A stretch of 64,000 nucleotides of DNA from Bacteroidota bacterium (GTDB lineage Bacteria > Bacteroidota > Bacteroidia > UKL13-3): contig CANGVA010000003.1 in the NCBI GenBank assembly GCA_947457395.1, positions 78,825 through 142,824 of the forward strand, written 5' to 3'. The notes beneath the pieces were generated by a model, which saw only the letters and a program-made list of their open reading frames with translations, did no database searches and was not told the DNA's origin. The translations under genes were made by a program, and so were the position numbers. Shown one piece after another: positions 5,756 through 55,651 of this stretch. The first letter of the stretch is position 1. Every line of letters starts with the position of its first letter.

Positions 5756-6841
5756 TTAAAACTTGTATACAAAATCAAGATAAGGAAGCGTTACATTTCT
5801 GGTATCAGGATCAGGTGCAATATTAACTACTGCAAAATCAATGCTGATTGCATTACTTGGCATAAAGCGTAAGCCAAGTGATAAAGCAGTTGAGTAAAAA
5901 TTCTTCTTTTCGTATACAGATTCCATCCATTCACTCCCGGTTCCGCTGGCTCGCAGCACTTGTCTATTATAACCTGCTCTTGGAATCATCCAGTTTTCTG
6001 TAACCAAAGAAATTTTCTTTGATATCCTTGTCATGCCATTTATGGTAGCTATGGGTCCTGGTGTAGCACTGTATTTATTATCAAAGCTGGCAAAGCCATA
6101 ACCTGCGCCAAGGGTAATATTGTGCTCGGTAGAACCATAGGTAGCGAGGCCATAGGCAACCCCTGCGCTTAGTCCCATTTCACTAAGAAAGGATTGGGTA
6201 AATAATATACCTGCACCGGTATAAAAACGTTCGGTTAGTTTAAATGATACTTTCGGAGTGATATAAAACAGAAAAGGTATTACAACACCTCCTCCAACAG
6301 TGAGGTTATTGGTTATCCCCACGTTGACCGAGTTGCCTATGATATAGGCATTTTGAAAATAGCCTTCTTTCTTTTTTAACGGAATAGCACTGGGTGCAAA
6401 AAAGTAGCGGGTAGCATTGGGATTGGCAAACCAAATACTACCTTTTCTGCTTGCAAATAAAGAGTAAGATGTAATTTTACTTATCATATTTACCGGGAAG
6501 GAGATGATGCCAGCAGAGCCTGTTTTAAGAAATACAACGCCACCGTTTAAACCAATCATTTCCCCTATATAGGTTTTCCCATTGGCAGCCTCAATCACTA
6601 TTTTGTCTTCGAGTTTATTAATATCTATTTCTTTAACTTCTTTCACAGCAATGGCAACCCTGCCTAAATTAAAATCATAAATAGCAACAGAGTCTGATTG
6701 TTGGTAATCAAGCAAACCATAAATTGTAGAGCCATCATTGAGTAATAAGGTGACTACAGATAAACCTATACTATCCGCTGATTGTCCCTTTGTAGCTAAG
6801 TTAGATATAGTTAGAAAAAATAAAGTAATTATCAGGCGCAT
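5756..6841 (-). CDS. Hypothetical secreted protein (N-terminal signal peptide; Gly/Ala-rich, possibly beta-rich)
   Basis: ATG start; MRLIITLFFLTISNLATKGQ signal peptide. No motif recognised. Confidence 0.5.
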   Translation of the reverse strand: MRLIITLFFLTISNLATKGQSADSIGLSVVTLLLNDGSTIYGLLDYQQSDSVAIYDFNLGRVAIAVKEVKEIDINKLEDKIVIEAANGKTYIGEMIGLNGGVVFLKTGSAGIISFPVNMISKITSYSLFASRKGSIWFANPNATRYFFAPSAIPLKKKEGYFQNAYIIGNSVNVGITNNLTVGGGVVIPFLFYITPKVSFKLTERFYTGAGILFTQSFLSEMGLSAGVAYGLATYGSTEHNITLGAGYGFASFDNKYSATPGPIATINGMTRISKKISLVTENWMIPRAGYNRQVLRASGTGSEWMESVYEKKNFYSTALSLGLRFMPSNAISIDFAVVNIAPDPDTRNVTLPYLDFVYKF

Positions 6842-7020
6842 ATATTTTCTTTAGCTTGGTTTTTATAAAAAAACCAGAACAGTTTAGTGTTTCAAAAGTA
6901 TATATAAGTATTTTTCAATTTCATGATTTCCATCATCATAATTTCTTTACTATACTTATGAAAAATATCAATCAGTAAGGTCCTGCAAACAGCTAGTTGA
7001 TTTGTTATTTTTGATAAACG

Positions 7021-8232
7021 ATGAAGGAGGAACTCTTACATTTTATTTGGCAAAGCAAGTTGCTTGCAGGAAATAAACTATTCACAACTAATGGTGAGCC
7101 TATTCAAATAATCAAGCAGGGTATATATAATAAAGATGCAGGACCTGATTTCCTCAATGCACGTATAAAAATTGGTGGAACAGAGTGGGCAGGCAATCTG
7201 GAAATGCATATTCATTCCTCAGAATGGCTGCAGCACCGCCATCAAAATGACCGAGCCTATGATAATGTTATTTTACACGTAGTCTACCATCATGATAAAC
7301 CTGTTTTAAACAAACATGGGCAAGAATTACCTACACTTGAATTAAAAGAACTGCTCCAACCTGCACTCATCAGAAAGTATACATACCTCCTTCAGAACAA
7401 GCATACCATAGCCTGTGAGACTATTTTTAGATTACCTGATCCTGTAAAAACAAATCTTTGGCTAAGCAGACTATTAATTGAGCGTCTTGAACATAAATGT
7501 AATTATCTGAACGATTTATTAATCAGAACAAATCAAAATTGGGAGCAGAGTTTTTATTTGTTTACTGCAAGGTACTTTGGTATGAAAACAAATGCACAGC
7601 CTTTTGAATGGCTTGCAGAACGCATACCACTTATTGCTTTAGCTAAACATAAGGAGAGACCTGAGCAAATATTGGCAATGCTTATGGGAACTGCAGGATT
7701 GATTGATGAAACGAAGCAGCCAGATTTGCAGGCTGAATTCTTATTTCTTCAGCATAAGTATCATCTGGAAGCCTTGCCTAGACATGTCTGGAAATTTTCA
7801 CAAACAAGACCGGCTAATTTCCCAACAGTTCGTATTAAGCAATTTGCTGCCTTGATTCATGAGTCATCACATCTTTTTTCAAAGGTGATGCAGGTAAGAG
7901 ATGTATGTGAGTTGGAGGAACTCTATACTGTTACTGGCGAGTCAAAACTCAGTAGACAATCCATTCAACTAATACTAATCAATACCAGTATACCTGCTTT
8001 ATTTTTATACGGAAAAAAAATGAATAAGCCCGAGTTATGTGAAAAGGCACTGTCTTTTATAGAAGAATTGAACGCAGAACAAAACGCAACCATTCGATTT
8101 TGGGCATCTAAAGGGCTTAAGGCTCAAAATGCAGCACAAAGTCAGGCATTATTGCAACTTAATCAGTACTATTGTACTCAATTAGCCTGTTTGACATGCA
8201 TGTTCGGACAAAATATTTTATTAAATGAATAG
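7021..8232 (+). CDS. DUF2851 family protein
   Basis: N-terminus MKEELLHFIWQSKLL...GPDFLNARIKIGG..WAGN.EMHI.SSEW..H.H..D..Y.NVILHVV matches the conserved start of Bacteroidota DUF2851 proteins as I recall them. Length ~400 aa is typical. Confidence 0.65.
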   Translation: MKEELLHFIWQSKLLAGNKLFTTNGEPIQIIKQGIYNKDAGPDFLNARIKIGGTEWAGNLEMHIHSSEWLQHRHQNDRAYDNVILHVVYHHDKPVLNKHGQELPTLELKELLQPALIRKYTYLLQNKHTIACETIFRLPDPVKTNLWLSRLLIERLEHKCNYLNDLLIRTNQNWEQSFYLFTARYFGMKTNAQPFEWLAERIPLIALAKHKERPEQILAMLMGTAGLIDETKQPDLQAEFLFLQHKYHLEALPRHVWKFSQTRPANFPTVRIKQFAALIHESSHLFSKVMQVRDVCELEELYTVTGESKLSRQSIQLILINTSIPALFLYGKKMNKPELCEKALSFIEELNAEQNATIRFWASKGLKAQNAAQSQALLQLNQYYCTQLACLTCMFGQNILLNE

Positions 8233-8791
8233 ATTAATTATTCTTAGTTTTTTTATCCTACCCTTGGCAGCTGTTTGTCAGCCTGCCTTGTACTTTTATA
8301 ATGCGCAAGTCAACAAGATCATTGTAGCAAAACCCGGTGATCAGCTCGTGGTAATGTATAAAGGATACAACAACCAGACTGAATTTTATAGAGAAATTAT
8401 TACAGAGATTACAGACAGTACGGTAACGCTTGGTAATAACTATAACCATGCAAATAATTTTATTAGCAGGGGTCAAAAGCGAAAAGCAGAGAAATTAGGA
8501 CCCAATTTTAAAGTTATTGCCATTAAAGATATTGTTGCTTTCAGAAGAATTGGTGTAGGTAGTATACTAACAAAATCTGTATTGCAGATTGGGTCGGTGC
8601 TAGGTTTAGTCGTTTTAGCTGAAGACGTCTTTGAATCATCTAGTTTTAGTTCATCAGAAAAATTTCTAATTACATTTGGTGCAGGCTTAGCAACCAAGGT
8701 TCTTTTAACCATATTATTCCCGGAAGGCGTGAAGTATCAAATGAGTGATGGTTGGCAATCATCTTCGGTTAAACCGCAAACAGCCAGATAG
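8225..8791 (+). CDS. Hypothetical secreted/membrane protein (signal peptide; hydrophobic C-terminal half)
   Basis: ATG overlapping the upstream stop by 8 nt; MNRLIILSFFILPLAAVCQ signal. Confidence 0.45.
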   Translation: MNRLIILSFFILPLAAVCQPALYFYNAQVNKIIVAKPGDQLVVMYKGYNNQTEFYREIITEITDSTVTLGNNYNHANNFISRGQKRKAEKLGPNFKVIAIKDIVAFRRIGVGSILTKSVLQIGSVLGLVVLAEDVFESSSFSSSEKFLITFGAGLATKVLLTILFPEGVKYQMSDGWQSSSVKPQTAR

Positions 8792-43682: not shown

Positions 43683-44400
43683 TGTAATGGAGTATTTGGT
43701 TAAGTCCTTCCAACACAAGATTGGGGGCAGCAAATATGTTGTTTTTTAGCTGTTTCTGCAAAATACCTGCATTGCCACCGCAAAGTAGGGTTTGCAGTTC
43801 CCGATAGGTTTCTTCATAACGGCTGATGCGCCCATTTATTTCATCAATCAACCCAAAATAGGCTCCGGCAAGCAGGCAAGCAGCGGTGTTTTTACCTGTA
43901 ATTTGTTCAGGTATCTGCCACTCAGGAAGCGGTAGGCGTTGTGTAAAGGTTTGCATGGCGCGCAGGCGCATGTGCAAACCGGGCGAAATAGCACCTCCTT
44001 GATAATGTCCGTCAGCAGTTAACAGATCATATGTAACACAGGTGCCACTATCAATTACCAATACCGGCTTATCCGGATGCCTTGCCTTTGCCCCTGCAAT
44101 ACCAGCAAGTCTGTCGGCTCCTAGTGTTTGTGGAGTTTCATAATCGTTGATGAATGGCAACGGGGTATGAGCGGAAAATATCAGACAAGGCAAGGGAGCA
44201 AGTAATTTCTGAATAAGATTGGAATCAACCGATACAGAACTGATGATGGCAACGGATGCATTATGCAGGTGCGCTGTTATGTTACTTACATCGATTAGTG
44301 GCAGCACATGTAAGGATGCAAGCTCATTGCCGTTAAAATGTGCAAGTTTGATGAGTGTATTACCTGCATCTACCACCAATGTGTGTTTTATTGCAGCCAT
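43672..44400 (-). CDS. coaX: Type III pantothenate kinase
   Basis: LVVDAGNTLIK (DxGNT), GADRL, VIDSGTCVTYD. Confidence 0.85.
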   Translation of the reverse strand: MAAIKHTLVVDAGNTLIKLAHFNGNELASLHVLPLIDVSNITAHLHNASVAIISSVSVDSNLIQKLLAPLPCLIFSAHTPLPFINDYETPQTLGADRLAGIAGAKARHPDKPVLVIDSGTCVTYDLLTADGHYQGGAISPGLHMRLRAMQTFTQRLPLPEWQIPEQITGKNTAACLLAGAYFGLIDEINGRISRYEETYRELQTLLCGGNAGILQKQLKNNIFAAPNLVLEGLNQILHYNVK

Positions 44401-45197
44401 GTAATTTCTTTATTACTGAAATTTGTAACAGTTTTACCGGTTTGTACGCGTAGGCTGCCTTCTTCATTAATACCCATAGGAATGCCCTCTTCCGGTTCTT
44501 TATCTATTAAAAAGCGAGTTTGCAAACCTTTACGGTACATAACTTGTTCGTAAGCAGCAATAAGTGCTCCCAAATCCTGCATATACATTTTGTTAATGCT
44601 GCGCTGCAAGCAATTAATCAATAATTTTAGCAGGGATTTTAGCTCATAATTTGCACCGGTTAGCTGTGCCAAGGATGTGGCATTGCTGCTTGTAAAATGT
44701 GTTTGGTTTATATTCATCCCAATGCCGCAAATGCTTTGCCTGATAAACTCTCCCTGCAGGCTGTTTTCTATTAGTAAGCCGGCAATTTTTTTATCACCCG
44801 CATATATATCATTTGGCCATTTGATGCTTGCCTGCCCATTGGCATATGCAGAAACGAATTCATGCACGCCTAAACTTAATGCCAGGTTTATTTTTACTTG
44901 TTCCTGCGCATGTAGGTTGTGTGGGAATAATACTATGCTTACCGTAAGATTCAGATCTTTTGCTGCTTCCCACTTATTTTCTCCCTGACCCCTTCCTGCA
45001 TATTGGTAATGAGCACAAATAACCGCTCCGTCATCACAGGCGCCCCGCTCGCATAAGTGTTTGGCTATGTTATTGGTAGAATCTGCTTCATCTAGCCAAA
45101 TGACAGAAGATCCAATGTGATGTTGCAAAATGTTTACCTTTGCAGCCAAAGATAGAAAAAATGGCGAAGAAAGAACCTGCAAAAAAGAAAGCAGCAC
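44388..45197 (-). CDS. birA: Biotin--[acetyl-CoA-carboxylase] ligase (BirA, catalytic domain only)
   Basis: WLDEADSTNN, YAGRGQGENKW, KWPNDIY.GDKKIAGLLIE. The ORF-track start at 45197 is GTG and overlaps the divergent rsfS ORF; the true start is probably further in (for example TTG at ~45149). Confidence 0.75.
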   Translation of the reverse strand: MLLSFLQVLSSPFFLSLAAKVNILQHHIGSSVIWLDEADSTNNIAKHLCERGACDDGAVICAHYQYAGRGQGENKWEAAKDLNLTVSIVLFPHNLHAQEQVKINLALSLGVHEFVSAYANGQASIKWPNDIYAGDKKIAGLLIENSLQGEFIRQSICGIGMNINQTHFTSSNATSLAQLTGANYELKSLLKLLINCLQRSINKMYMQDLGALIAAYEQVMYRKGLQTRFLIDKEPEEGIPMGINEEGSLRVQTGKTVTNFSNKEITWLQ

Positions 45198-45634
45198 CTA
45201 AAAAAACAGCAGTAAAAAAAGTAAGTACCAAGCCCAAAGCAGAGCGACCCAAAACAAAGAAAGTTGCAGATGTTACTACCTATAGCAGCATGGCACTTGC
45301 AAAGGCTGTGGCACAGGGTATGTTTGAGTTAAAGGCAGAAGACATTAAGATACTGGATATGCGAAACATTGATAAGGCATCAGCTGACTTCTTTGTTATT
45401 TGTCATGCAAAATCAGATAAACAGGTGGAAGCTATTGGTGATTCAGTAGAAGAAGAAGTTTTTAAAATATTTAAAGAATGGCCGTGGCACCGTGAGGGCT
45501 ATGAAAATTTGGAGTGGGTGTTATTGGACTATATAGATGTGGTGGCGCATATTTTTCAGCAGGAAAAGCGCGAGTTTTATGCAGTAGAGGAACTGTGGGG
45601 CGATGCCGTAGATATCCCTTTTGAGGGAAAATAG
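45161..45634 (+). CDS. rsfS: Ribosome silencing factor RsfS (Iojap family) with a Lys/Ala/Pro-rich N-terminal extension
   Basis: Core DIKILDMRNIDKASADFFVICHAKSDKQVEAIGDSVEE...WVLLDYIDVVAHIFQQEKREFYAVEELWGDA matches the RsfS/DUF143 fold. It is preceded by MAKKEPAKKKAAPKKTAVKKVSTKPKAERPKTKKV. The ORF-track start at 45140 is TTG. Confidence 0.8.
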   Translation: MAKKEPAKKKAAPKKTAVKKVSTKPKAERPKTKKVADVTTYSSMALAKAVAQGMFELKAEDIKILDMRNIDKASADFFVICHAKSDKQVEAIGDSVEEEVFKIFKEWPWHREGYENLEWVLLDYIDVVAHIFQQEKREFYAVEELWGDAVDIPFEGK

Positions 45635-45884: not shown

Positions 45885-47048
45885 ATGACTACAGAGCAGC
45901 AACTTGAATTGTCTATTGTAATGCCTTGCCTAAATGAGGCTGAAACAATTGGTGCATGTATTGAAAAAGCAATACGTTACTTAAATCAGCATCATATTAG
46001 GGGAGAAGTAATTGTTTCTGATAACGGAAGTACCGATGGCTCCATTGCTATTGCCGAAAGGCTTGGCGCCCGTGTGGTGCATGCTACTGAAAAGGGTTAT
46101 GGCAGCGCATTGATGTATGGGATAGAAGCAGCATTTGGCAAATATGTAATCATGGGTGACTCGGATGATAGCTATGATTTCTCTGCTCTCAATCCTTTTC
46201 TTATAAAACTACGTGAAGGTTACGATTTGGTGGTAGGCAACCGCTTTAAAGGCGGAATTGGCAAAGGTGCCATGCCTTTTCTGCATAAATATTTAGGTAA
46301 TCCGGTCTTGTCATTTATTGGCAAATTGTTTTTTCATTCACCTGTAAATGATTTTCATTGTGGTTTACGCGGCTTCAGACAGGATATCGTCTCGCTGTTA
46401 AATCTCCGTACCACGGGCATGGAGTTTGCTAGTGAGATGATTGTGAAAGCAAGCTTATTTAAGTTGCGTATCTGCGAAGTGCCAACTACGTTGAGTGTGG
46501 CTGGTCGTAGCCGCCCACCGCACCTGCGCACTTGGCAAGACGGCTGGCGGCATCTACGCTTTTTACTTATTTACAGTCCGCGCTGGCTTTTTTTATATCC
46601 CGGAATATTGTTGATGCTAACCGGTATGCTATCAGGCGGATTTATTATGAATGGCCCTGTTCATTTGTTTAATATTTATTTTGATACCAACACCTTGCTT
46701 TATTCAGGAGCTGCTGCCATTATTGGTTTTCAGTTAATGGTGTTCGGAATTTTTACGCGCAGGTATGCCATTCAAACTGGATTAATGCCCGACCAAAAAA
46801 CAATTTCTCTGGTAGAAAAATGGCTAACTCTGGAACGAGGAATTGTAGTTGGTGTGCTCATTACCCTTGCCGGTGTTGCAGGTTCTGCTTACTCTTTGTA
46901 TCTATGGGATCAGGTTGATTTTGGAACACTGGAATATTCTTCAATTCTGCGTGTTGTTATACCATCGGTTGTTTTTATTATTCTGGGCATTCAAACCATT
47001 TTCTCAAGTTTCTTTTTAAGTGTGCTTTCCCTTAACCGCAAGCGATGA
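45885..47048 (+). CDS. Membrane-anchored GT2 polyprenyl-phosphate glycosyltransferase (GtrB/ArnC/DPM-synthase-like, with C-terminal TM helices)
   Basis: LSIVMPCLNE, VIVSDNGSTDGS, MGDSDDSYDF (DxD), GYGSALMYG. Four hydrophobic helices in the C-terminal 150 aa. Confidence 0.8.
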   Translation: MTTEQQLELSIVMPCLNEAETIGACIEKAIRYLNQHHIRGEVIVSDNGSTDGSIAIAERLGARVVHATEKGYGSALMYGIEAAFGKYVIMGDSDDSYDFSALNPFLIKLREGYDLVVGNRFKGGIGKGAMPFLHKYLGNPVLSFIGKLFFHSPVNDFHCGLRGFRQDIVSLLNLRTTGMEFASEMIVKASLFKLRICEVPTTLSVAGRSRPPHLRTWQDGWRHLRFLLIYSPRWLFLYPGILLMLTGMLSGGFIMNGPVHLFNIYFDTNTLLYSGAAAIIGFQLMVFGIFTRRYAIQTGLMPDQKTISLVEKWLTLERGIVVGVLITLAGVAGSAYSLYLWDQVDFGTLEYSSILRVVIPSVVFIILGIQTIFSSFFLSVLSLNRKR

Positions 47049-47593
47049 AGGCGTTTGATTACTGGCTGCAAAAAAAAAGAATTGCACAGGCTGCGGCATT
47101 TATTAATACAGGCGCTCATGTGTTAGATATTGGTTCATATGATGGCGCACTCTTTAAGCAACTGTACGATAAAAATATTACTGGAGCTGGCGTAGATCCT
47201 CTGGCTAAAACGGCCGGTTATGGCCATTACCGCTTGGTAAAGGGTTTATTTCCACAGGCATTTCAACCCGATGAGTTGTTTGATTGTATTACCATGCTGG
47301 CTGTTTTGGAGCATATTCCGGTAGGGGAGCAGCCTAAACTTGCCCAAGCCTGCCACCAACACCTGAAACCAAAAGGCAGGGTAATTATTACGGTTCCTGC
47401 GCCACAGGTAGATTATATATTGGCAGTTTTGCGCTTTTTGCGCATCATAGACGGCATGTCGCTGGAGGAGCACTATGGCTTTAAAACAACAGATACCCCG
47501 CACATTTTTTCTTCACCTCTATTTAAACTCCTCAGCCACAAAACATTTCAGTTTGGGCTTAATCATGTATTTGTATTTGAAAAAGTATCATAA
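47045..47593 (+). CDS. Class I SAM-dependent methyltransferase (paralogous in type to 30385..31029)
   Basis: VLDIGSYDG (motif I), FDCITMLAVLEHI, KPKGRVIITVP. Start overlaps the GT2 stop (ATGA at 47045-47048). Confidence 0.7.
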   Translation: MKAFDYWLQKKRIAQAAAFINTGAHVLDIGSYDGALFKQLYDKNITGAGVDPLAKTAGYGHYRLVKGLFPQAFQPDELFDCITMLAVLEHIPVGEQPKLAQACHQHLKPKGRVIITVPAPQVDYILAVLRFLRIIDGMSLEEHYGFKTTDTPHIFSSPLFKLLSHKTFQFGLNHVFVFEKVS

Positions 47594-47633
47594 AGGTCTT
47601 TTCTTTACAACTTATTATTAAGCAGCAAGTATT

Positions 47634-49064
47634 GTGAGCAATTCAATTAAAGTAGCAGTTATTGGTGCCGGTCCTGCCGGTATCACAGCTGCATATCAAT
47701 TAAGCAAAGAAATATCATCGGTTGATATATATGAGGCCAGCTCGTCTGTTGGGGGCCTTGCCAAGTCGGTTGAGCTATGGGGGCAAACTGTTGATATTGG
47801 TCCGCACCGTTTTTTTAGTAGCGATACAAGAGTAAACTCTTTATGGCTAGAGGTTGTAAAAGAAGACTATGCTATGGTAAACCGCCTTACGCGTATCCTC
47901 TATAAAAACAATTTATATTTCTATCCAATTAAAGCACTTGACGCGCTTAGTAAACTGGGCCTATTTGAAGCAGCACGCTGTATGCTTAGTTTTGGTCTGG
48001 AAAGAATATTGCCAACCAAGGATAAGAGTACGTTTGAAGGATGGGTGCGCAGCCGCTTTGGGAAAAGGCTCTATGAAATATTTTTTAAAACCTACAGCGA
48101 AAAACTTTGGGGTATTCCCTGCAATGAACTGGATGCTGATTTTGCAGCACAACGCATTAAAAAACTCTCCTTGTGGGAGGCGGTAAAAGCGGCACTGTTT
48201 GGTGATAAAGATAAAAAGCACAAAACGCTGGTGGATGAATTTGCTTACCCATTGCAGGGAACAGGTATGGTTTATAATCGGATGGAGCAGCTGATTAAAG
48301 AAAAAGGTGGCAAAGTATTTTTAAAAACACCTGTAAAGCGTGTGATTGTTGAAGGTGGCATGGCCAAGGGGCTTGAACTGGAAAACGGTGAGATAAAATA
48401 TTACGACCATATTATTTCTTCCATGCCACTTACGCTGCTGGTAAGTCGCATTGATGAAGCACCCCAGCAAATAAAAAGTCTGAATGCACAACTGCGTTTC
48501 AGAAATACCATTATTGTTTTTGTTGAGGTAGATGCAACCAATTTGTTTGAAGACAATTGGCTGTATGTGCATTCAACAGATTTACGCACCGGGCGTATTA
48601 CCAATTTCAGAAACTGGGTACCTCAATTATATAAGGATAAAAAAACCAGCATACTTGCTTTGGAATACTGGTGCTATGACGAAGATGATTTCTGGAAATG
48701 GACAGATGAACAGTTGAACAATTTAGGTATGGAGGAAATACGTAAAACCGGATTAATTGGCGAGGCAAATATTTTACATGCACATACGTATCGCATACCA
48801 CGTTGTTATCCTGTATACTCAAAAGGGTACAAAGAAATTCTGAGCCCTGTTGAGCAATACCTAAGCAGCATTCAGCATCTACATGTAATTGGCCGATATG
48901 GTGCGTTTAAGTATAACAACCAGGATCACTCCATTTTAATGGGTATGCTGGCAGCTGAAAATATTTTAAAGCATACCAAGCACAATCTTTGGGAAATAAA
49001 TACTGATTACGAAAGTTATCAGGAAAGTTCAGTTATTACTAAAACCGGGCTGGTAAAAAAATGA
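47634..49064 (+). CDS. FAD-dependent oxidoreductase of the UDP-galactopyranose-mutase (Glf)-like / amine-oxidase-like family
   Basis: N-terminal KVAVIGAGPAGITAAYQL...IYEASSSVGG (FAD Rossmann). FGKRLYEIFFKTYSEKLWGIPCNELDADFAAQRIKK parallels the E. coli/Klebsiella Glf segment [33 protein letters not shown], recalled from memory. C-terminal GRYGAFKYNNQDHSILMG. GTG start at 47634 (no upstream in-frame ATG). ~100 aa longer than bacterial Glf. Confidence 0.6.
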   Translation: MSNSIKVAVIGAGPAGITAAYQLSKEISSVDIYEASSSVGGLAKSVELWGQTVDIGPHRFFSSDTRVNSLWLEVVKEDYAMVNRLTRILYKNNLYFYPIKALDALSKLGLFEAARCMLSFGLERILPTKDKSTFEGWVRSRFGKRLYEIFFKTYSEKLWGIPCNELDADFAAQRIKKLSLWEAVKAALFGDKDKKHKTLVDEFAYPLQGTGMVYNRMEQLIKEKGGKVFLKTPVKRVIVEGGMAKGLELENGEIKYYDHIISSMPLTLLVSRIDEAPQQIKSLNAQLRFRNTIIVFVEVDATNLFEDNWLYVHSTDLRTGRITNFRNWVPQLYKDKKTSILALEYWCYDEDDFWKWTDEQLNNLGMEEIRKTGLIGEANILHAHTYRIPRCYPVYSKGYKEILSPVEQYLSSIQHLHVIGRYGAFKYNNQDHSILMGMLAAENILKHTKHNLWEINTDYESYQESSVITKTGLVKK

Positions 49065-52003
49065 GTAAGAAAAACACAAGTAAACCGGCCGCTGAGCCGG
49101 TAAAAACAGTAAGTGATCAGGAGCTTACTTTTTTGTTTGTTTCAAAAGGTACTGCTTCAGATGCCAACCTGATTGCTCAGGCTATATTAAAGGTGCGAAC
49201 CGAAGCCTCATTGGTAGTAATGGATTGGAGTTGTGATGCAGAAACCCAACAGGCTATTGCTGCACTCAGAGAGAAAGGACGCTGTCATGTAATAAAAAAT
49301 ATGGATGAGTGGCAGCAACACGCGGGGCAAGTAGTTTATGTGGTAGATGATGCTGCTTCATTTAATCCGCAAGCAGTAGTAACCTGTTTTGCTGCACAAA
49401 AAAAATCGTTCACACATACAGATGCAGTTTATGCAGGTGAGTTTAACAAACAGTCGGGTAAGTTACCGCTTTCTGTTTTTCAAAAAGCAGGTATTGGTTT
49501 ATACAATTTACTGGCTTCAATGCTGCTGCCTGCAGGCATCAAAGATTTTACACATCCATTTATATTTTTTGGCAAGGATGCAGCATTAAAAGGTATTACA
49601 TCCGGTCATACCAAAAGTATCTCCGTTTGCAGCAGGCTGGCTTATTTGCAAACACCTTTCATATCATTAAACCTTACAGGCAAAGAACATCCTTATCGAA
49701 AAGTTCGTTTTAATGTAATTAGCAGCAATATACTGGCCCCGCGCATTAGCTGGTTTATTAAAGATCCGTTGGTGCGTTACGGTGTAGAAGATGCCGCAGG
49801 TTATCAGCCATTATACCGTTTGCTTTTTGTGGCCTTTTTTCTGTTTGCATTTATTGCCATGCCATACTTGAGTCAGGATTTTGGTATTACATGGGATGCA
49901 AAGCGCCACAATCAATATGGCTATCAGATGCTCAATTATTTTACCTCATTTGGCAGTGATTCTACCGCATTATCTGCTACATCACCCATTCAGGAGTTTA
50001 GATACTACGGTGAGCATTTCAATGTAATCAGTGCATTTTTTAATACTTATTTTGGTGTGCTGGGTGAGTTTGAAATGCGCCATTTGCTTAATGCTTTGTA
50101 TGGATTGCTGGCCATGTTATTTGCAGCATTGGCTGCCAAAGAAATCACCTCCTGGCGTGGAGGCTTTTTTGCTTTTGTATTGATTTTTTGTAGTCCCGTA
50201 TTTTTCGGACACAGCATGAATAACCCAACGGATATTCCTTTTGCAGCGGGTTCTGCTATGGCACTTTATTATTTATTAAAGGTGCTTAAAAATTTACCTG
50301 CACCAACATTATCGCATCTGGTATGGTGTGCAGCAGGTATAGGCATGGCCATCGGATCTCGTGTGGGTGGCATCATCTGGTATGCCTACACCGGTTTGTT
50401 TCTTGGCTTGGCATGGTTGTTTATTGCAAAGAAAGATGGCATGGGTAAAGCCATTAAAATGATTTGGCCTTATGCACGTATCTTATTGCTTATCGTGATT
50501 ATTGGTCACTTGGTTGGTATTTCCTTATGGCCGTTTGCCCAGCAAAAACCATTTACCAACTGGTATGAGGCACTTAAAAAATCAACTGAGGGTGCTTACT
50601 TTACCTATAACCATGAATTATTTGAAGGTGTTCGGATGTACATGGCCAACGTGCCCTGGTATTATTTGCCTAAGTTTATTTTTATTAATACACCGGAAGT
50701 GGTTTGGGCCGGTTTGCTTTTACTCGTGCCGCTTATCTGGGTTTTAAAGAAAACGTATACCCGCTGGTACCTCATTGGTGTGGTATTATTTGTTGCAATA
50801 TTTCCTATAGCTTATGCTGAGGTTCAGAGCATGTATTATTATAATGGCTGGAGGCATTATCTGTTTGTATATCCGCCAATTGTGGTGTTGGCTGCTTGTG
50901 GCTGGGATGCCTTGGGCGCTGTTATCAGAAATAAAATGGCATCACATCTTGCATTGGCAGGCGTGCTGGTTTTAAGTATGCTTCCGGTTTCGTGGATGAT
51001 TGCCAATCATCCCAACCAATGTGTGTATTTTAATACCCTTAGTGGCGGAACCCGGGCAGCTTATGGTAAATACGAAATGGATTATTACTCTAACTCATGC
51101 CGTGCCGCAGCAGAATGGCTTTCCAAGCAAGAGCCCAATAAAAAATTACTGGTAGGCATCAATAATGAACCACTTACTGCATCCTACTATGCCAATAAGT
51201 TTAATCCCAATATGGAGTTCAGGTGGATGCGAGAGTATGAGGAACAAAAAATCCCTTGGGACTATGCTATCCTAACCTCACGCACATATTCTTCAAAAGA
51301 GTTGGCTAATGGAGCATTCCCTCCTAAAGGAACTGTTTATACAGTTGAAGCAGATGGCATGCCGCTGGCGGCTGTTGTTAAAAGGGAAAATGACTGGATG
51401 CCCAAGGGGTATCAGGCATTTGAAGCCAGAAATTATGATACCGCACTTATCTGTTTTAGGAATGCCGAAGCCTACAACCCAAAAGATGAAGAGGTTTTTC
51501 GCATGCTGGGTTTAACTTTCATGGCGATGCGTAATGCAACAGAAGCCACCAGAAGTTTAAATAAAGCCATTGATATATATCCTGAAAATTACATGGCATG
51601 GTCGGCTCTGGGCTTGGTAGAAATTAACCTAAATAAAAATCCGGATAAAGCTATTGAATATTTTAGAAAAGCCAATGAGTATAAGTTTAATTATACCGAT
51701 GCATACTATTACACAGCCATGGCATACTATCAGAAAAAAGATTTTTCTGAAGGAATAAAATATCTGGAGATGGCAGTAAAACGTGGCGGTGGTAGTGTGG
51801 CTGATGTTTATTATAATCTTGGACTCGGCTATTTTAATACAGGCAGTTATAAAAAAGCGGAAGACAACATGATACTAGCACTTACGCTGGAGCCTAACAA
51901 TGCTATGTCATACCGCTTACTTGCAGAAGTGTTTAGCAAACAAGGTAAAAATGCCGAAGCTGAGGAGTGTATGAGAAGATATGCAGCACTGGGTGGAAAA
52001 TAA
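49061..52003 (+). CDS. Large membrane glycosyltransferase-like protein: N-terminal cytoplasmic GT-A-like domain, GT-C-like multi-TM core (ArnT/PMT-type topology) and C-terminal TPR repeats
   Basis: aa ~1-240 soluble (VVYVVDDAASF resembles a DxD region). aa ~250-650 has >=10 TM helices, with Asp-containing first loop YLSQDFGITWDAKRHNQYGY. aa ~770-980 has tandem TPR-like repeats (AEAYNPKDEEVFRMLGLTF..., AIDIYPENYMAWSALG..., YYNLGLGYFNTGSYKKAEDN...). Start overlaps the upstream stop (ATGA at 49061-49064). Confidence 0.6.
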   Translation: MSKKNTSKPAAEPVKTVSDQELTFLFVSKGTASDANLIAQAILKVRTEASLVVMDWSCDAETQQAIAALREKGRCHVIKNMDEWQQHAGQVVYVVDDAASFNPQAVVTCFAAQKKSFTHTDAVYAGEFNKQSGKLPLSVFQKAGIGLYNLLASMLLPAGIKDFTHPFIFFGKDAALKGITSGHTKSISVCSRLAYLQTPFISLNLTGKEHPYRKVRFNVISSNILAPRISWFIKDPLVRYGVEDAAGYQPLYRLLFVAFFLFAFIAMPYLSQDFGITWDAKRHNQYGYQMLNYFTSFGSDSTALSATSPIQEFRYYGEHFNVISAFFNTYFGVLGEFEMRHLLNALYGLLAMLFAALAAKEITSWRGGFFAFVLIFCSPVFFGHSMNNPTDIPFAAGSAMALYYLLKVLKNLPAPTLSHLVWCAAGIGMAIGSRVGGIIWYAYTGLFLGLAWLFIAKKDGMGKAIKMIWPYARILLLIVIIGHLVGISLWPFAQQKPFTNWYEALKKSTEGAYFTYNHELFEGVRMYMANVPWYYLPKFIFINTPEVVWAGLLLLVPLIWVLKKTYTRWYLIGVVLFVAIFPIAYAEVQSMYYYNGWRHYLFVYPPIVVLAACGWDALGAVIRNKMASHLALAGVLVLSMLPVSWMIANHPNQCVYFNTLSGGTRAAYGKYEMDYYSNSCRAAAEWLSKQEPNKKLLVGINNEPLTASYYANKFNPNMEFRWMREYEEQKIPWDYAILTSRTYSSKELANGAFPPKGTVYTVEADGMPLAAVVKRENDWMPKGYQAFEARNYDTALICFRNAEAYNPKDEEVFRMLGLTFMAMRNATEATRSLNKAIDIYPENYMAWSALGLVEINLNKNPDKAIEYFRKANEYKFNYTDAYYYTAMAYYQKKDFSEGIKYLEMAVKRGGGSVADVYYNLGLGYFNTGSYKKAEDNMILALTLEPNNAMSYRLLAEVFSKQGKNAEAEECMRRYAALGGK

Positions 52004-54562: not shown

Positions 54563-55651
54563 ATGGGAATAAAGAAGCTCTTTTTTATTTTATTGCATGC
54601 CATTGTCTTTGCTGCAAATGCACAACAGGATTCGTTGCGTAGTGTTTTTAGTTATGGGGCAACCCTTCATAAGGGCTTTATTTTTGCCCATAGCAGGGAG
54701 GTACAAAATACAGCCAATTCTTATCCTACAGGTTTTCAAATAGACTTTAACTGGCAACTGGCTGATGCCAAAACCTGGAATACTTGCTATTGCTATCCAA
54801 AAACCGGATTTTTTATCCAGTACTTTAATTTTGACAATCAGATTTTGGGCCATGCCATTACCACAGCCGCGTTCATTGAACCATATTTTTCTTTTACGAA
54901 TCGCATCAATATGGCATTAAAGGCAGCAGCAGGATTATCTTATTTAACCAATCCGTATCATCCCGTAAATAATCCAAGCAACTTGTCATATAGTTTACCG
55001 GTTACCGGTTTTGTTTCATTGGGTTTGGGTGCTCACATTAAACTTTCGCAGCGTTTAAATATGAGTGCATATGTTCATTATAACCATGTATCTAACGGGG
55101 GTATCAAAGACCCGAATAAAGGTGTAAACTGGCCAACGGCTGCTTTGGGTATAGACTATAAGCCTATTGCAGCAGTTCTTCCTGTGAGGGAAAAAATAAG
55201 ATATAAAAACTATAAGGGTAAGCCACCCCGCTTGGATATTAGTGCATTTTGGTCGAGCAAAACGGTTCAGGCAGGAGAGAAGGATAGATGGATGATTGGA
55301 GGAGTAGCTGCGCAGATGAGCAAGCAAATCGGCATATTTAATGCACTTACCTTCGGAGCGGAATGGAATATAGATAATTCACTCAGGGAAAGACTCAAGC
55401 GCGATGGGAAAACCGATATAAGCAATCAGCGGATGGCTATTACCGGTGGTCATGAATTTTTAATGGGTAAGATTATTTTTAGTCAGCAACTGGGTATTTA
55501 TCTATTTAACCCAAGTGGATATTTTGATCCGGTTTTTCAACGTTATGGATTATGGTATCGATTTACCGAGCATTGGGGTGTGGGCATGAACGTGCTGGCA
55601 CACCGGCAGGTTGCCAATTTCCTTGATTTCAGGTTAGTTTATAGTCTTTAA
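54563..55651 (+). CDS. Acyloxyacyl hydrolase / PagL-like lipid A deacylase family outer-membrane protein
   Basis: Signal peptide; beta-barrel-like alternating pattern; His-x-Ser-Asn-Gly catalytic motif in YVHYNHVSNGGI. Confidence 0.55.
   Translation: MGIKKLFFILLHAIVFAANAQQDSLRSVFSYGATLHKGFIFAHSREVQNTANSYPTGFQIDFNWQLADAKTWNTCYCYPKTGFFIQYFNFDNQILGHAITTAAFIEPYFSFTNRINMALKAAAGLSYLTNPYHPVNNPSNLSYSLPVTGFVSLGLGAHIKLSQRLNMSAYVHYNHVSNGGIKDPNKGVNWPTAALGIDYKPIAAVLPVREKIRYKNYKGKPPRLDISAFWSSKTVQAGEKDRWMIGGVAAQMSKQIGIFNALTFGAEWNIDNSLRERLKRDGKTDISNQRMAITGGHEFLMGKIIFSQQLGIYLFNPSGYFDPVFQRYGLWYRFTEHWGVGMNVLAHRQVANFLDFRLVYSL

Follow-up and report, generated by a model that had tools for sequence, protein, structure and literature searches.

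The window, a stretch of 64,000 nucleotides from a Bacteroidota bacterium (contig CANGVA010000003.1), encodes at positions 47634-49064 (+) a flavin adenine dinucleotide (FAD) enzyme of 476 amino acids that resembles UDP-galactopyranose mutase (UGM), known in bacteria as Glf, and that belongs to the protein family NCBIfam NF005548 / PRK07208. With moderate confidence, based on residue conservation and a modelled structure, this flavoenzyme is proposed to be a cytoplasmic FAD-dependent UDP-sugar pyranose/furanose mutase with the architecture of eukaryotic UGMs, which would most probably convert UDP-galactopyranose (UDP-Galp) to UDP-galactofuranose (UDP-Galf). Galactose is considered the most probable sugar because GalE genes are found next to members of the family. 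The suggestion of the initial annotation, which had been made from the letters of the window, that this gene could represent a distinct Glf-like mutase subfamily is therefore supported. UGMs use reduced FAD, the N5 of which attacks the anomeric carbon of the sugar and displaces UDP; the sugar ring then opens, closes again in the furanose form and is attacked by UDP. In the same manner, the window enzyme would use a reduced flavin to turn UDP-galactopyranose into UDP-galactofuranose, with attack of the flavin N5 on C1 displacing UDP, followed by ring contraction and re-attack by UDP.

Evidence for this proposal comes from the active site. In a MAFFT alignment, 113 family sequences (the window protein and 112 representatives that are 31-52% identical to it) were compared with the UGMs of Aspergillus fumigatus (AfUGM, 3ute/3ukh) and Trypanosoma cruzi (TcUGM, 4dsg) and with Escherichia coli Glf (EcUGM), and the residue equivalences were taken from the table in van Straaten et al. 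(PMC3322874). In AfUGM, the diphosphate and the sugar are held in position by R182 and R327, phosphate is bound by Y419 and Y453, uridine by Y104, F158, Y162 and W167, and galactose is contacted by N457, W315 and R327 (PMC3322874). The window protein has, after a short N-terminal lead, a GAGPAG dinucleotide-binding (Rossmann) motif for FAD (47664-47681, +), which is invariant in a second alignment of 48 family sequences (A1), and continues with the 'histidine loop' GPHRFFS (47799-47819, +), in which H58 equals AfUGM H63 (112/113) and F61 equals AfUGM F66. R84 (AfUGM R91, 108/113) and Y97 (AfUGM Y104, 112/113) are found further along the chain. The uridine/UDP-binding motif FGKRLYEIFFKTYSEKLWG (48057-48113, +, residues 142-160) contains F150, Y154, S155 and W159, which correspond to F158, Y162, N163 and W167 in AfUGM and to L147, Y151, T152 and W156 in E. 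coli; F150 is kept in 105, and Y154 and W159 are each kept in 107 of the 113 sequences. This segment had been noted before as a parallel to the Glf substrate-binding region, and it is indeed identical to VGEDLYQALIKGYTEKQWG of E. coli Glf at 9 of 19 positions, including the EcUGM active-site positions Y151, T152 and W156. The retention of the uridine-binding motif favors a UDP-sugar substrate.

The remaining catalytic positions are located in four more segments. DADFAAQRIKK (48132-48164, +) is the equivalent of mobile loop I and holds R174 (AfUGM R182, EcUGM R170), which is an Arg in 105/113 sequences. In WLYVHSTDLRTGRITNFRNW (48558-48617, +), W309, Y311 and R321 correspond to W315, Y317 and R327 of AfUGM (108, 108 and 112 of 113, respectively), while AfUGM E373 is matched by D351, a position with D or E in 109/113. 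The phosphate-binding Y419 of AfUGM is represented by Y392 in CYPVY (48804-48818, +; 106/113), and GRYGAFKYNNQDHSILMG (48891-48944, +) contains R421 (AfUGM R447, 111/113), Y427 (AfUGM Y453, 105/113), N429 (AfUGM N457, 101/113) and Q430 (AfUGM Q458), the last of which is invariant across A1. All universal UGM residues (EcUGM H56, Y151, W156, R170, R278, Y311, R340 and Y346) are thereby matched in the window protein (H58, Y154, W159, R174, R321, Y392, R421 and Y427), each in 105-112 of the 113 family representatives, which answers the call of the initial annotation to check the active-site Arg, Tyr and His residues. As judged from this alignment, nearly the whole UGM catalytic site is retained in the family, and the protein is read as a UDP-sugar mutase because the residues that bind the diphosphate, the sugar, the phosphate and the uridine are all conserved.

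The active site also allows the eukaryotic and bacterial types of UGM to be compared. Of the eukaryote-type markers, the equivalents of F66, R91, W315, Y317, N457 and Q458 are present (F61, R84, W309, Y311, N429 and Q430 in the window protein), whereas those of N207 and Q107 are not (V200 and K100). Where bacterial UGMs have His, Val/Thr and Asn, the window protein shares Phe, Trp and Tyr with the eukaryotic enzymes; F66, for example, is a His in prokaryotic UGMs. Two features follow the bacterial pattern instead, namely the loop sequence GPH, which is present in many bacterial UGMs where the eukaryotic enzymes have GGH, and the Ser or Thr at the N163/T152 position.

The predicted fold is also of the eukaryotic type. 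In a single-sequence search of solved structures, the window protein matched T. cruzi 4dsg (3.7e-22) and the A. fumigatus enzyme (~1e-20), compared to 1.5e-9 for bacterial UGM, with only the N-terminal 170 residues aligned, and 5e-9 for protoporphyrinogen oxidase (PPOX). When alignment A1 was used as a family profile, TcUGM (2.6e-30) and AfUGM (5.5e-30) were both matched over the full length, and bacterial UGM and PPOX (3i6d) scored 7e-13 and 1.5e-10, respectively, with the match to bacterial UGM confined to the N-terminal ~165 residues. The AlphaFold2 (AF2) model of the flavoenzyme (pLDDT 84, pTM 0.85) shows the three-domain fold with the inserts specific to eukaryote-type UGMs, and all top 34 Foldseek matches are eukaryotic UGMs (TM-scores of 0.77-0.81).

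In the initial annotation, the length of the protein and its GTG start codon were presented as oddities; both turned out to be ordinary for the NF005548 family. With 476 aa, the protein surpasses E. coli Glf (367 aa) by 109 residues, and it exceeds classical Glf (E. coli 1i8t, Klebsiella pneumoniae, Deinococcus radiodurans 3hdq) and the Campylobacter jejuni UDP-GalNAc mutase (4mo2) by approximately 100 aa. The reported excess of about 100 aa is thus real but not anomalous, as relatives with 60-70% identity from many distant phyla have lengths of 471-478 aa. The inserted segments that had been proposed are present as well: approximately 97 residues align to gaps and lack a counterpart in E. coli Glf, namely residues 189-200, 243-252, 276-286, 346-351 and 362-391, plus 448-463 and 465-476 in the C-terminal tail. 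Apart from the tail, these segments (~69 residues) match segments that are also present in AfUGM, and the inserts are therefore largely of eukaryote-type architecture. The tail itself (48975-49061, +, residues 448-476) consists of 29 residues with the pattern WEINTDYxxYQExxxITxxGL. It is largely invariant in close homologues (A1), was modelled with low confidence (AF2) and is not matched by any part of the solved UGMs; where AfUGM has a three-helix extension, the window protein has this short, family-specific element, which could be involved in partner binding or could form an active-site lid.

The open reading frame (ORF) at 47634-49064, of 476 codons and opening with GTG (47634-47636, +), was confirmed in the sequence. 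A TAA stop codon is in frame at 47619-47621, 15 nt 5' of the GTG, making this GTG the sole canonical start before GAGPAG and ruling out a start further upstream. The statement that no in-frame ATG is present holds upstream of the Rossmann motif but not further in, as the earliest in-frame ATG is codon 81 (M81); this codon was rejected as a start since the Rossmann motif would be lost. Family ORFs begin 5-12 codons ahead of IGAGPAG, at least 63 of the 79 loci use ATG there, and a relative that is 85% identical (L006) has an ATG precisely where the window carries GTG. Because of these family starts and the ATG at the homologous codon in L006, the GTG of the window is seen as a simple ATG-to-GTG change at the usual start of the family. 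Public gene calls for the identical 476-aa protein use the same start codon as the window. The short N-terminal lead into the Rossmann motif, which the initial annotation had deduced from the GTG, is supported by the upstream TAA and the starts of the homologues, and by this comparison is typical of NF005548. The NF005548 model (PRK07208.1-4, "hypothetical protein", FAD-dependent oxidoreductase) matches with 550.4 bits against a cutoff of 389, with residues 6-470 covering profile positions 5-475 of 488. Together with the lengths and starts of the homologues, this full-length match means that neither the length nor the GTG is an anomaly.

The family is large and widespread. More than 7900 relatives were found in a search of 5.8 billion proteins, the best 120 of which are 65-93% identical and nearly all 470-479 aa long. 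When 1.84 billion representative proteins were scanned in full, 1560 clusters (50% identity) were obtained with E <= 1e-30. At least 554 family loci were found in a scan of one genome per species, of which 80, with 60-85% identity, were retained for comparison; these are from Bacteroidota, Leptospirales, Chlorobi, Acidobacteriota, Myxococcota, Planctomycetota, Hydrogenedentota and others, and the loci labelled Chitinophaga, Chryseobacterium and Flavobacterium (L083, L013 and L080) come from metagenome-assembled genomes. One of the retained Bacteroidota loci (L035) has a second UGM-like/amine-oxidase paralogue (6791-8458, -; 555 aa; E 1e-16 to TcUGM) at ~1.5 kb from the family gene, beside a gene for a family 2 glycosyltransferase (GT2) and genes for polytopic membrane proteins.

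A protein identical to the 476-aa window protein is already present in public collections, in which family members are now labelled 'hypothetical', 'FAD-dependent oxidoreductase' or 'protoporphyrinogen oxidase'. For the cluster mates of the window protein, NCBI uses the name "FAD-dependent oxidoreductase [Sphingobacteriales bacterium]", whereas JGI/IMG uses "protoporphyrinogen oxidase". The latter label is probably wrong because the PPOX model is far under its cutoff (TIGR00562, 41.7 bits vs 97.85), and the HemY models are not reached either (PRK11883.1-1, 54.6 vs 517; PRK11883.1-5, 49.5 vs 560). A function as protoporphyrinogen oxidase (HemY), for which the JGI name and the weak profile match to 3i6d speak, is hardly credible: in addition to the scores below the cutoffs, the active site is UGM-like, and the genes nearby are glycosylation genes, with no haem genes among them. 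This identity is regarded as effectively refuted. Grouping with the oxidases and loss of the UGM catalytic residues had been named in the initial annotation as the outcome that would speak against a mutase; the residues are kept, and the PPOX hidden Markov models do not reach their cutoffs.

The genomic context links the flavoenzyme to glycosylation. It is the third of four co-directional genes, and in this respect it differs from the eukaryotic UGMs, being a bacterial gene in an operon with genes for a GT2, a methyltransferase and a GT-C fold glycosyltransferase. The GT2 and methyltransferase genes overlap at ATGA, as do those for the flavoenzyme and the GT-C, and the two pairs are separated by a gap of 40 nt; from this arrangement, the four genes are taken to form a translationally coupled module. 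The GT2 (45885-47048, +; 387 aa) consists of a cytoplasmic GT-A domain and approximately four C-terminal transmembrane (TM) helices and matches Pfam Glycos_transf_2 (PF00535) with 99 bits. Its best match in the PDB is the Pyrococcus furiosus Dol-P-Man synthase 5mlz (1e-12), with ArnC and GtrB sll0501 as the next best, and based on these nearest solved relatives it is assigned to the polyprenyl-phosphate glycosyltransferase type. The NCBIfam models for AglJ, Dol-P-hexose transferase and PpgS all stayed under their cutoffs. The second gene encodes a small S-adenosylmethionine-dependent methyltransferase (47045-47593, +; 182 aa; Pfam Methyltransf_23, 62 bits). The fourth encodes the GT-C fold glycosyltransferase (49061-52003, +; 980 aa), with ~8 TM helices that include PMT_2 (30.9 bits, cutoff 26.1), a match to PMT (23.5, cutoff 22.7) and C-terminal TPR repeats recognized by many TPR families; no Pfam match was found in its first ~240 residues. 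With PMT_2 in the membrane core and the TPR repeats at the C terminus, its layout is TMTC-like. Judged by these matches, both the polyprenyl-phosphate glycosyltransferase and the GT-C component of a Gtr-like system are present in the window operon. A dedicated flippase was not recognized in the module, and the C-terminal TM region of the GT2 is not identified as PF04138.

Similar genes are found around other family members, as counted in 76-77 genome loci. Large polytopic membrane proteins (>=380 aa, at least 5 predicted TM segments) are encoded within three genes of the family gene in 51 loci, often two to three per locus. In a scan of 83 of these polytopic proteins, PMT_2 was by far the commonest domain (21/83), and DUF2079 was found in two. 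The unannotated membrane neighbours of ~530 aa (alignment A3) are candidate GT-C fold proteins; this fold is unproven for them because their profile gave no match in the PDB and NCBIfam named one only of the cluster ('LA_3751/LA_3752 family putative glycosyltransferase'). A GT-C/TPR protein of the window type adjoins the flavoenzyme gene in 11 of 76 loci, mostly in divergent orientation; its orthologues in nine other loci are 45-67% identical, and the eleventh cluster member (L062) is 21% identical. Eleven loci have a polyprenyl-phosphate-type GT2 in the vicinity, GtrA is directly adjacent to the family gene in nine, and methyltransferases flank the family gene in a Chlorobiales locus (L002). 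True GalE (TIGR01179, 439-454 bits vs a cutoff of 262) is encoded close to the family gene in 12 loci and is the commonest identifiable sugar-nucleotide neighbour, with UDP-glucose dehydrogenase present in five. No classical glf was found within 10 kb of the family gene in the 80 loci examined. In Leptospiraceae, Leptonemataceae and Spirochaetaceae (L041, L034, L024 and L065), the order polytopic membrane protein, GalE, GtrA, flavoenzyme is conserved, with a second polytopic protein downstream in L041 and only GalE, GtrA and the flavoenzyme in L065. This set of Leptospirales/spirochaete loci also includes a divergent UDP-glucose 6-dehydrogenase, and one of its membrane proteins is the 'LA_3751/LA_3752 family putative glycosyltransferase'.

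Multiple natural fusions join the flavoenzyme to the same types of partners. It is fused to a GT2 (P0162), to a GT2 and PMT_2 in a protein of 1409 aa with ~15 TM segments (P0164), to GtrA (P0132, P0143 and P0241), to Methyltransf_23 (P0248), to LPG_synthase_TM (P0220) and to PglD_N (P0252). In addition, the flavoenzyme is joined to an SDR epimerase/dehydratase (P0163) or a GFO/IDH/MocA domain (P0174), and long polytopic domains (7-10 TM segments, with no Pfam match and no recognizable GT2) are attached in P0169, P0226 and P0255. P0162, P0163 and P0174 were re-scanned against NCBIfam and matched NF005548 with 633-683 bits. The recurrence of the GT2, the methyltransferase and the GT-C as fusion partners is strong evidence that the four window genes act in one pathway. 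P0164, P0169, P0226 and P0255 are single polypeptides, which makes them candidate expression targets that might cover the whole pathway.

The fusions to GtrA, to polytopic domains and to LPG_synthase_TM would also fit an enzyme that acts on a lipid-linked substrate, converting the polyprenyl-phosphate-galactopyranose made by the GT2 to polyprenyl-phosphate-galactofuranose at the membrane, before flipping. Such an enzyme would still require the phosphate-binding Arg and Tyr residues, and the related folds PPOX and phytoene desaturase act on lipophilic substrates. This possibility is nevertheless judged to be quite improbable, as the full uridine-binding set (Y97, F150, Y154, S/T155 and W159) is kept as in UDP-binding UGMs, the flavoenzyme has no predicted membrane segment, and a precedent was not found in the searchable literature.

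Several observations weigh against the proposal of a UDP-Galp mutase. AfUGM N207, which contacts the galactose 4-OH and is a Phe in bacterial UGMs, aligns to V200, a position that is I or V throughout the family, and the uracil-contacting Q107 aligns to a variable position (K100 in the window). Identity to solved UGMs is only 20-23%, and the fold scores of PPOX are close behind those of UGM. The classical bacterial UGM model TIGR00031 is not reached (40 bits vs 303.75), the match being limited to residues 6-176, and Pfam GLF (PF03275) is under its threshold (21.2 vs 26.3); by the curated cutoffs, the flavoenzyme is therefore neither a classical Glf nor a HemY. Neither GtrA nor galE is in the window operon, the neighbourhoods across the family are heterogeneous, albeit with a clear theme, and the GtrA and polytopic-domain fusions are compatible with a lipid-linked substrate, as discussed above. 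No work on PRK07208 and no activity data for any member were found in the searchable literature, which is incomplete, so that earlier work may exist; likewise, no lipid-linked galactofuranose donor is documented in this incomplete literature.

Two further alternatives can be considered in the light of these points. The same mutase chemistry could act on another nucleotide sugar, such as UDP-GalNAc, UDP-L-arabinopyranose, UDP-galacturonate or a deoxy-hexose. The change at the N207 position concerns a galactose contact; N457, W315 and R327 of AfUGM, which also touch galactose, are conserved, and the frequent presence of an orthodox GalE (12 loci) again points to galactose, making a different sugar rather unlikely. 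Alternatively, the protein could be a redox flavoenzyme of the amine-oxidase/PPOX superfamily, which would oxidize a sugar hydroxyl in a two-step epimerization similar to that of DprE1/DprE2 or would desaturate a lipid. Pfam finds superfamily domains only, namely Amino_oxidase (PF01593, 75.3 bits vs 19.8, residues 15-372) and NAD_binding_8, and PPOX and phytoene desaturase are near in fold. The SDR and GFO/IDH/MocA partners could provide the reductase half, and the combination of GtrA, GT-C, flavoenzyme and SDR echoes the mycobacterial decaprenyl-phosphate arabinose (DPA) locus as it is generally known. The active site, however, is UGM-like when compared with this superfamily, and the context is that of glycosylation, not of haem; a redox function is given little credence.

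For the preferred reading, a UDP-sugar mutase, the context resembles the three-component systems for extracytoplasmic glycosylation. In these systems (GtrA/GtrB/GtrC), a monosaccharide is first attached to polyprenyl phosphate by a synthase in the cytoplasm and then brought to the other side of the membrane by a small flippase, where a GT-C enzyme transfers the sugar; auxiliary enzymes diversify the furanose donor. The same logic is found in the systems of Kelly et al. 2024 and in mycobacteria (DPA, GtrA (Rv3789) and Aft/Emb), and it is proposed for the window operon. The systems in Kelly et al. 2024 (PMC11127046) are undecaprenyl-phosphate-pentofuranose, MATE and GT136 systems; they lack a UGM-like enzyme, and galactofuranose, mutase and FAD are not mentioned in that paper. 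The FAD-dependent oxidoreductases discussed in a PNAS commentary belong to the pentofuranose systems based on phosphoribosyl pyrophosphate (PRPP). The known furanose systems start from PRPP (ribofuranose, arabinofuranose and xylofuranose) and use epimerases of the DprE1/E2 type, whereas the window appears to combine a UGM-like flavoenzyme with a UDP-sugar-dependent GT2, which together would supply a hexofuranose. A description of a UGM-like enzyme together with GtrA or GT-C was not found in the searchable, incomplete literature.

In the preferred reading, the product of the window mutase most likely enters the co-transcribed pathway. The Dol-P-Man-synthase-like GT2 would attach the furanose to a polyprenyl phosphate, and the lipid-linked sugar would then cross the membrane, a step for which GtrA is the flippase in relatives. 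The GT-C/TPR enzyme would pass the sugar on to an acceptor in the periplasm, either a glycan or a protein, and modification of the sugar would be the task of the small methyltransferase. More tentatively, the family as a whole may be the hexofuranose counterpart of the pentofuranose three-component systems: a eukaryote-type UGM-like mutase would make UDP-galactofuranose or act directly on polyprenyl-phosphate-galactopyranose, the GT2 would give polyprenyl-phosphate-galactofuranose as donor, and GT-C enzymes would attach furanose residues to glycans or proteins of the periplasm.

The genes on both sides of the module are unrelated to it: coaX, birA and rsfS are located upstream, and the downstream genes encode an esterase, an amino-acid permease and a PagL-like protein. 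The GC content of the module (0.40-0.43, compared to 0.36-0.42 in the flanks) gives no sign of recent acquisition by base composition, and no Bacteroidota-type promoter motif was evident by eye 5' of the GT2 gene. Some start codons listed for the flanking genes are questionable. The ORF of the esterase family (PF00756; 51967-53001) has a listed GTG start 37 nt within the end of the GT-C gene, and translation more likely begins at a later ATG (MQQVTGKRILLV..., which resembles a signal peptide). The ribosome-silencing factor RsfS (45140-45634) has a listed TTG start and a Lys/Ala/Pro-rich N-terminal extension of ~50 aa, and it overlaps the region of the listed GTG start of the divergent birA-like gene (44388-45197); one or both of these starts may be over-extended. 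The ORF at 54563-55651, ~2.5 kb downstream of the glycosylation module, codes for a protein that contains a PagL (lipid A 3-O-deacylase) domain.

For the window locus itself, the outcome is mainly a better annotation, as the gene is an ordinary member of a huge, catalogued and uncharacterised family. The relevance for the family as a whole may be larger. UGM is a drug and diagnostic target, galactofuranose is, to our knowledge, absent from mammals, and the biology of bacterial UGM has so far been built on the Glf type of ~380 aa. If the proposed function is correct, this family would be a second, eukaryote-like mutase lineage in bacteria. The recurrent linkage and fusion of its members with GT2, GtrA and GT-C predicts a polyprenyl-phosphate hexofuranose route to extracytoplasmic glycosylation, which would parallel both the pentofuranose systems and the arabinan pathway of mycobacteria, and such a route, if true, would span Bacteroidota, Leptospirales, Chlorobi, Acidobacteriota and Myxococcota.

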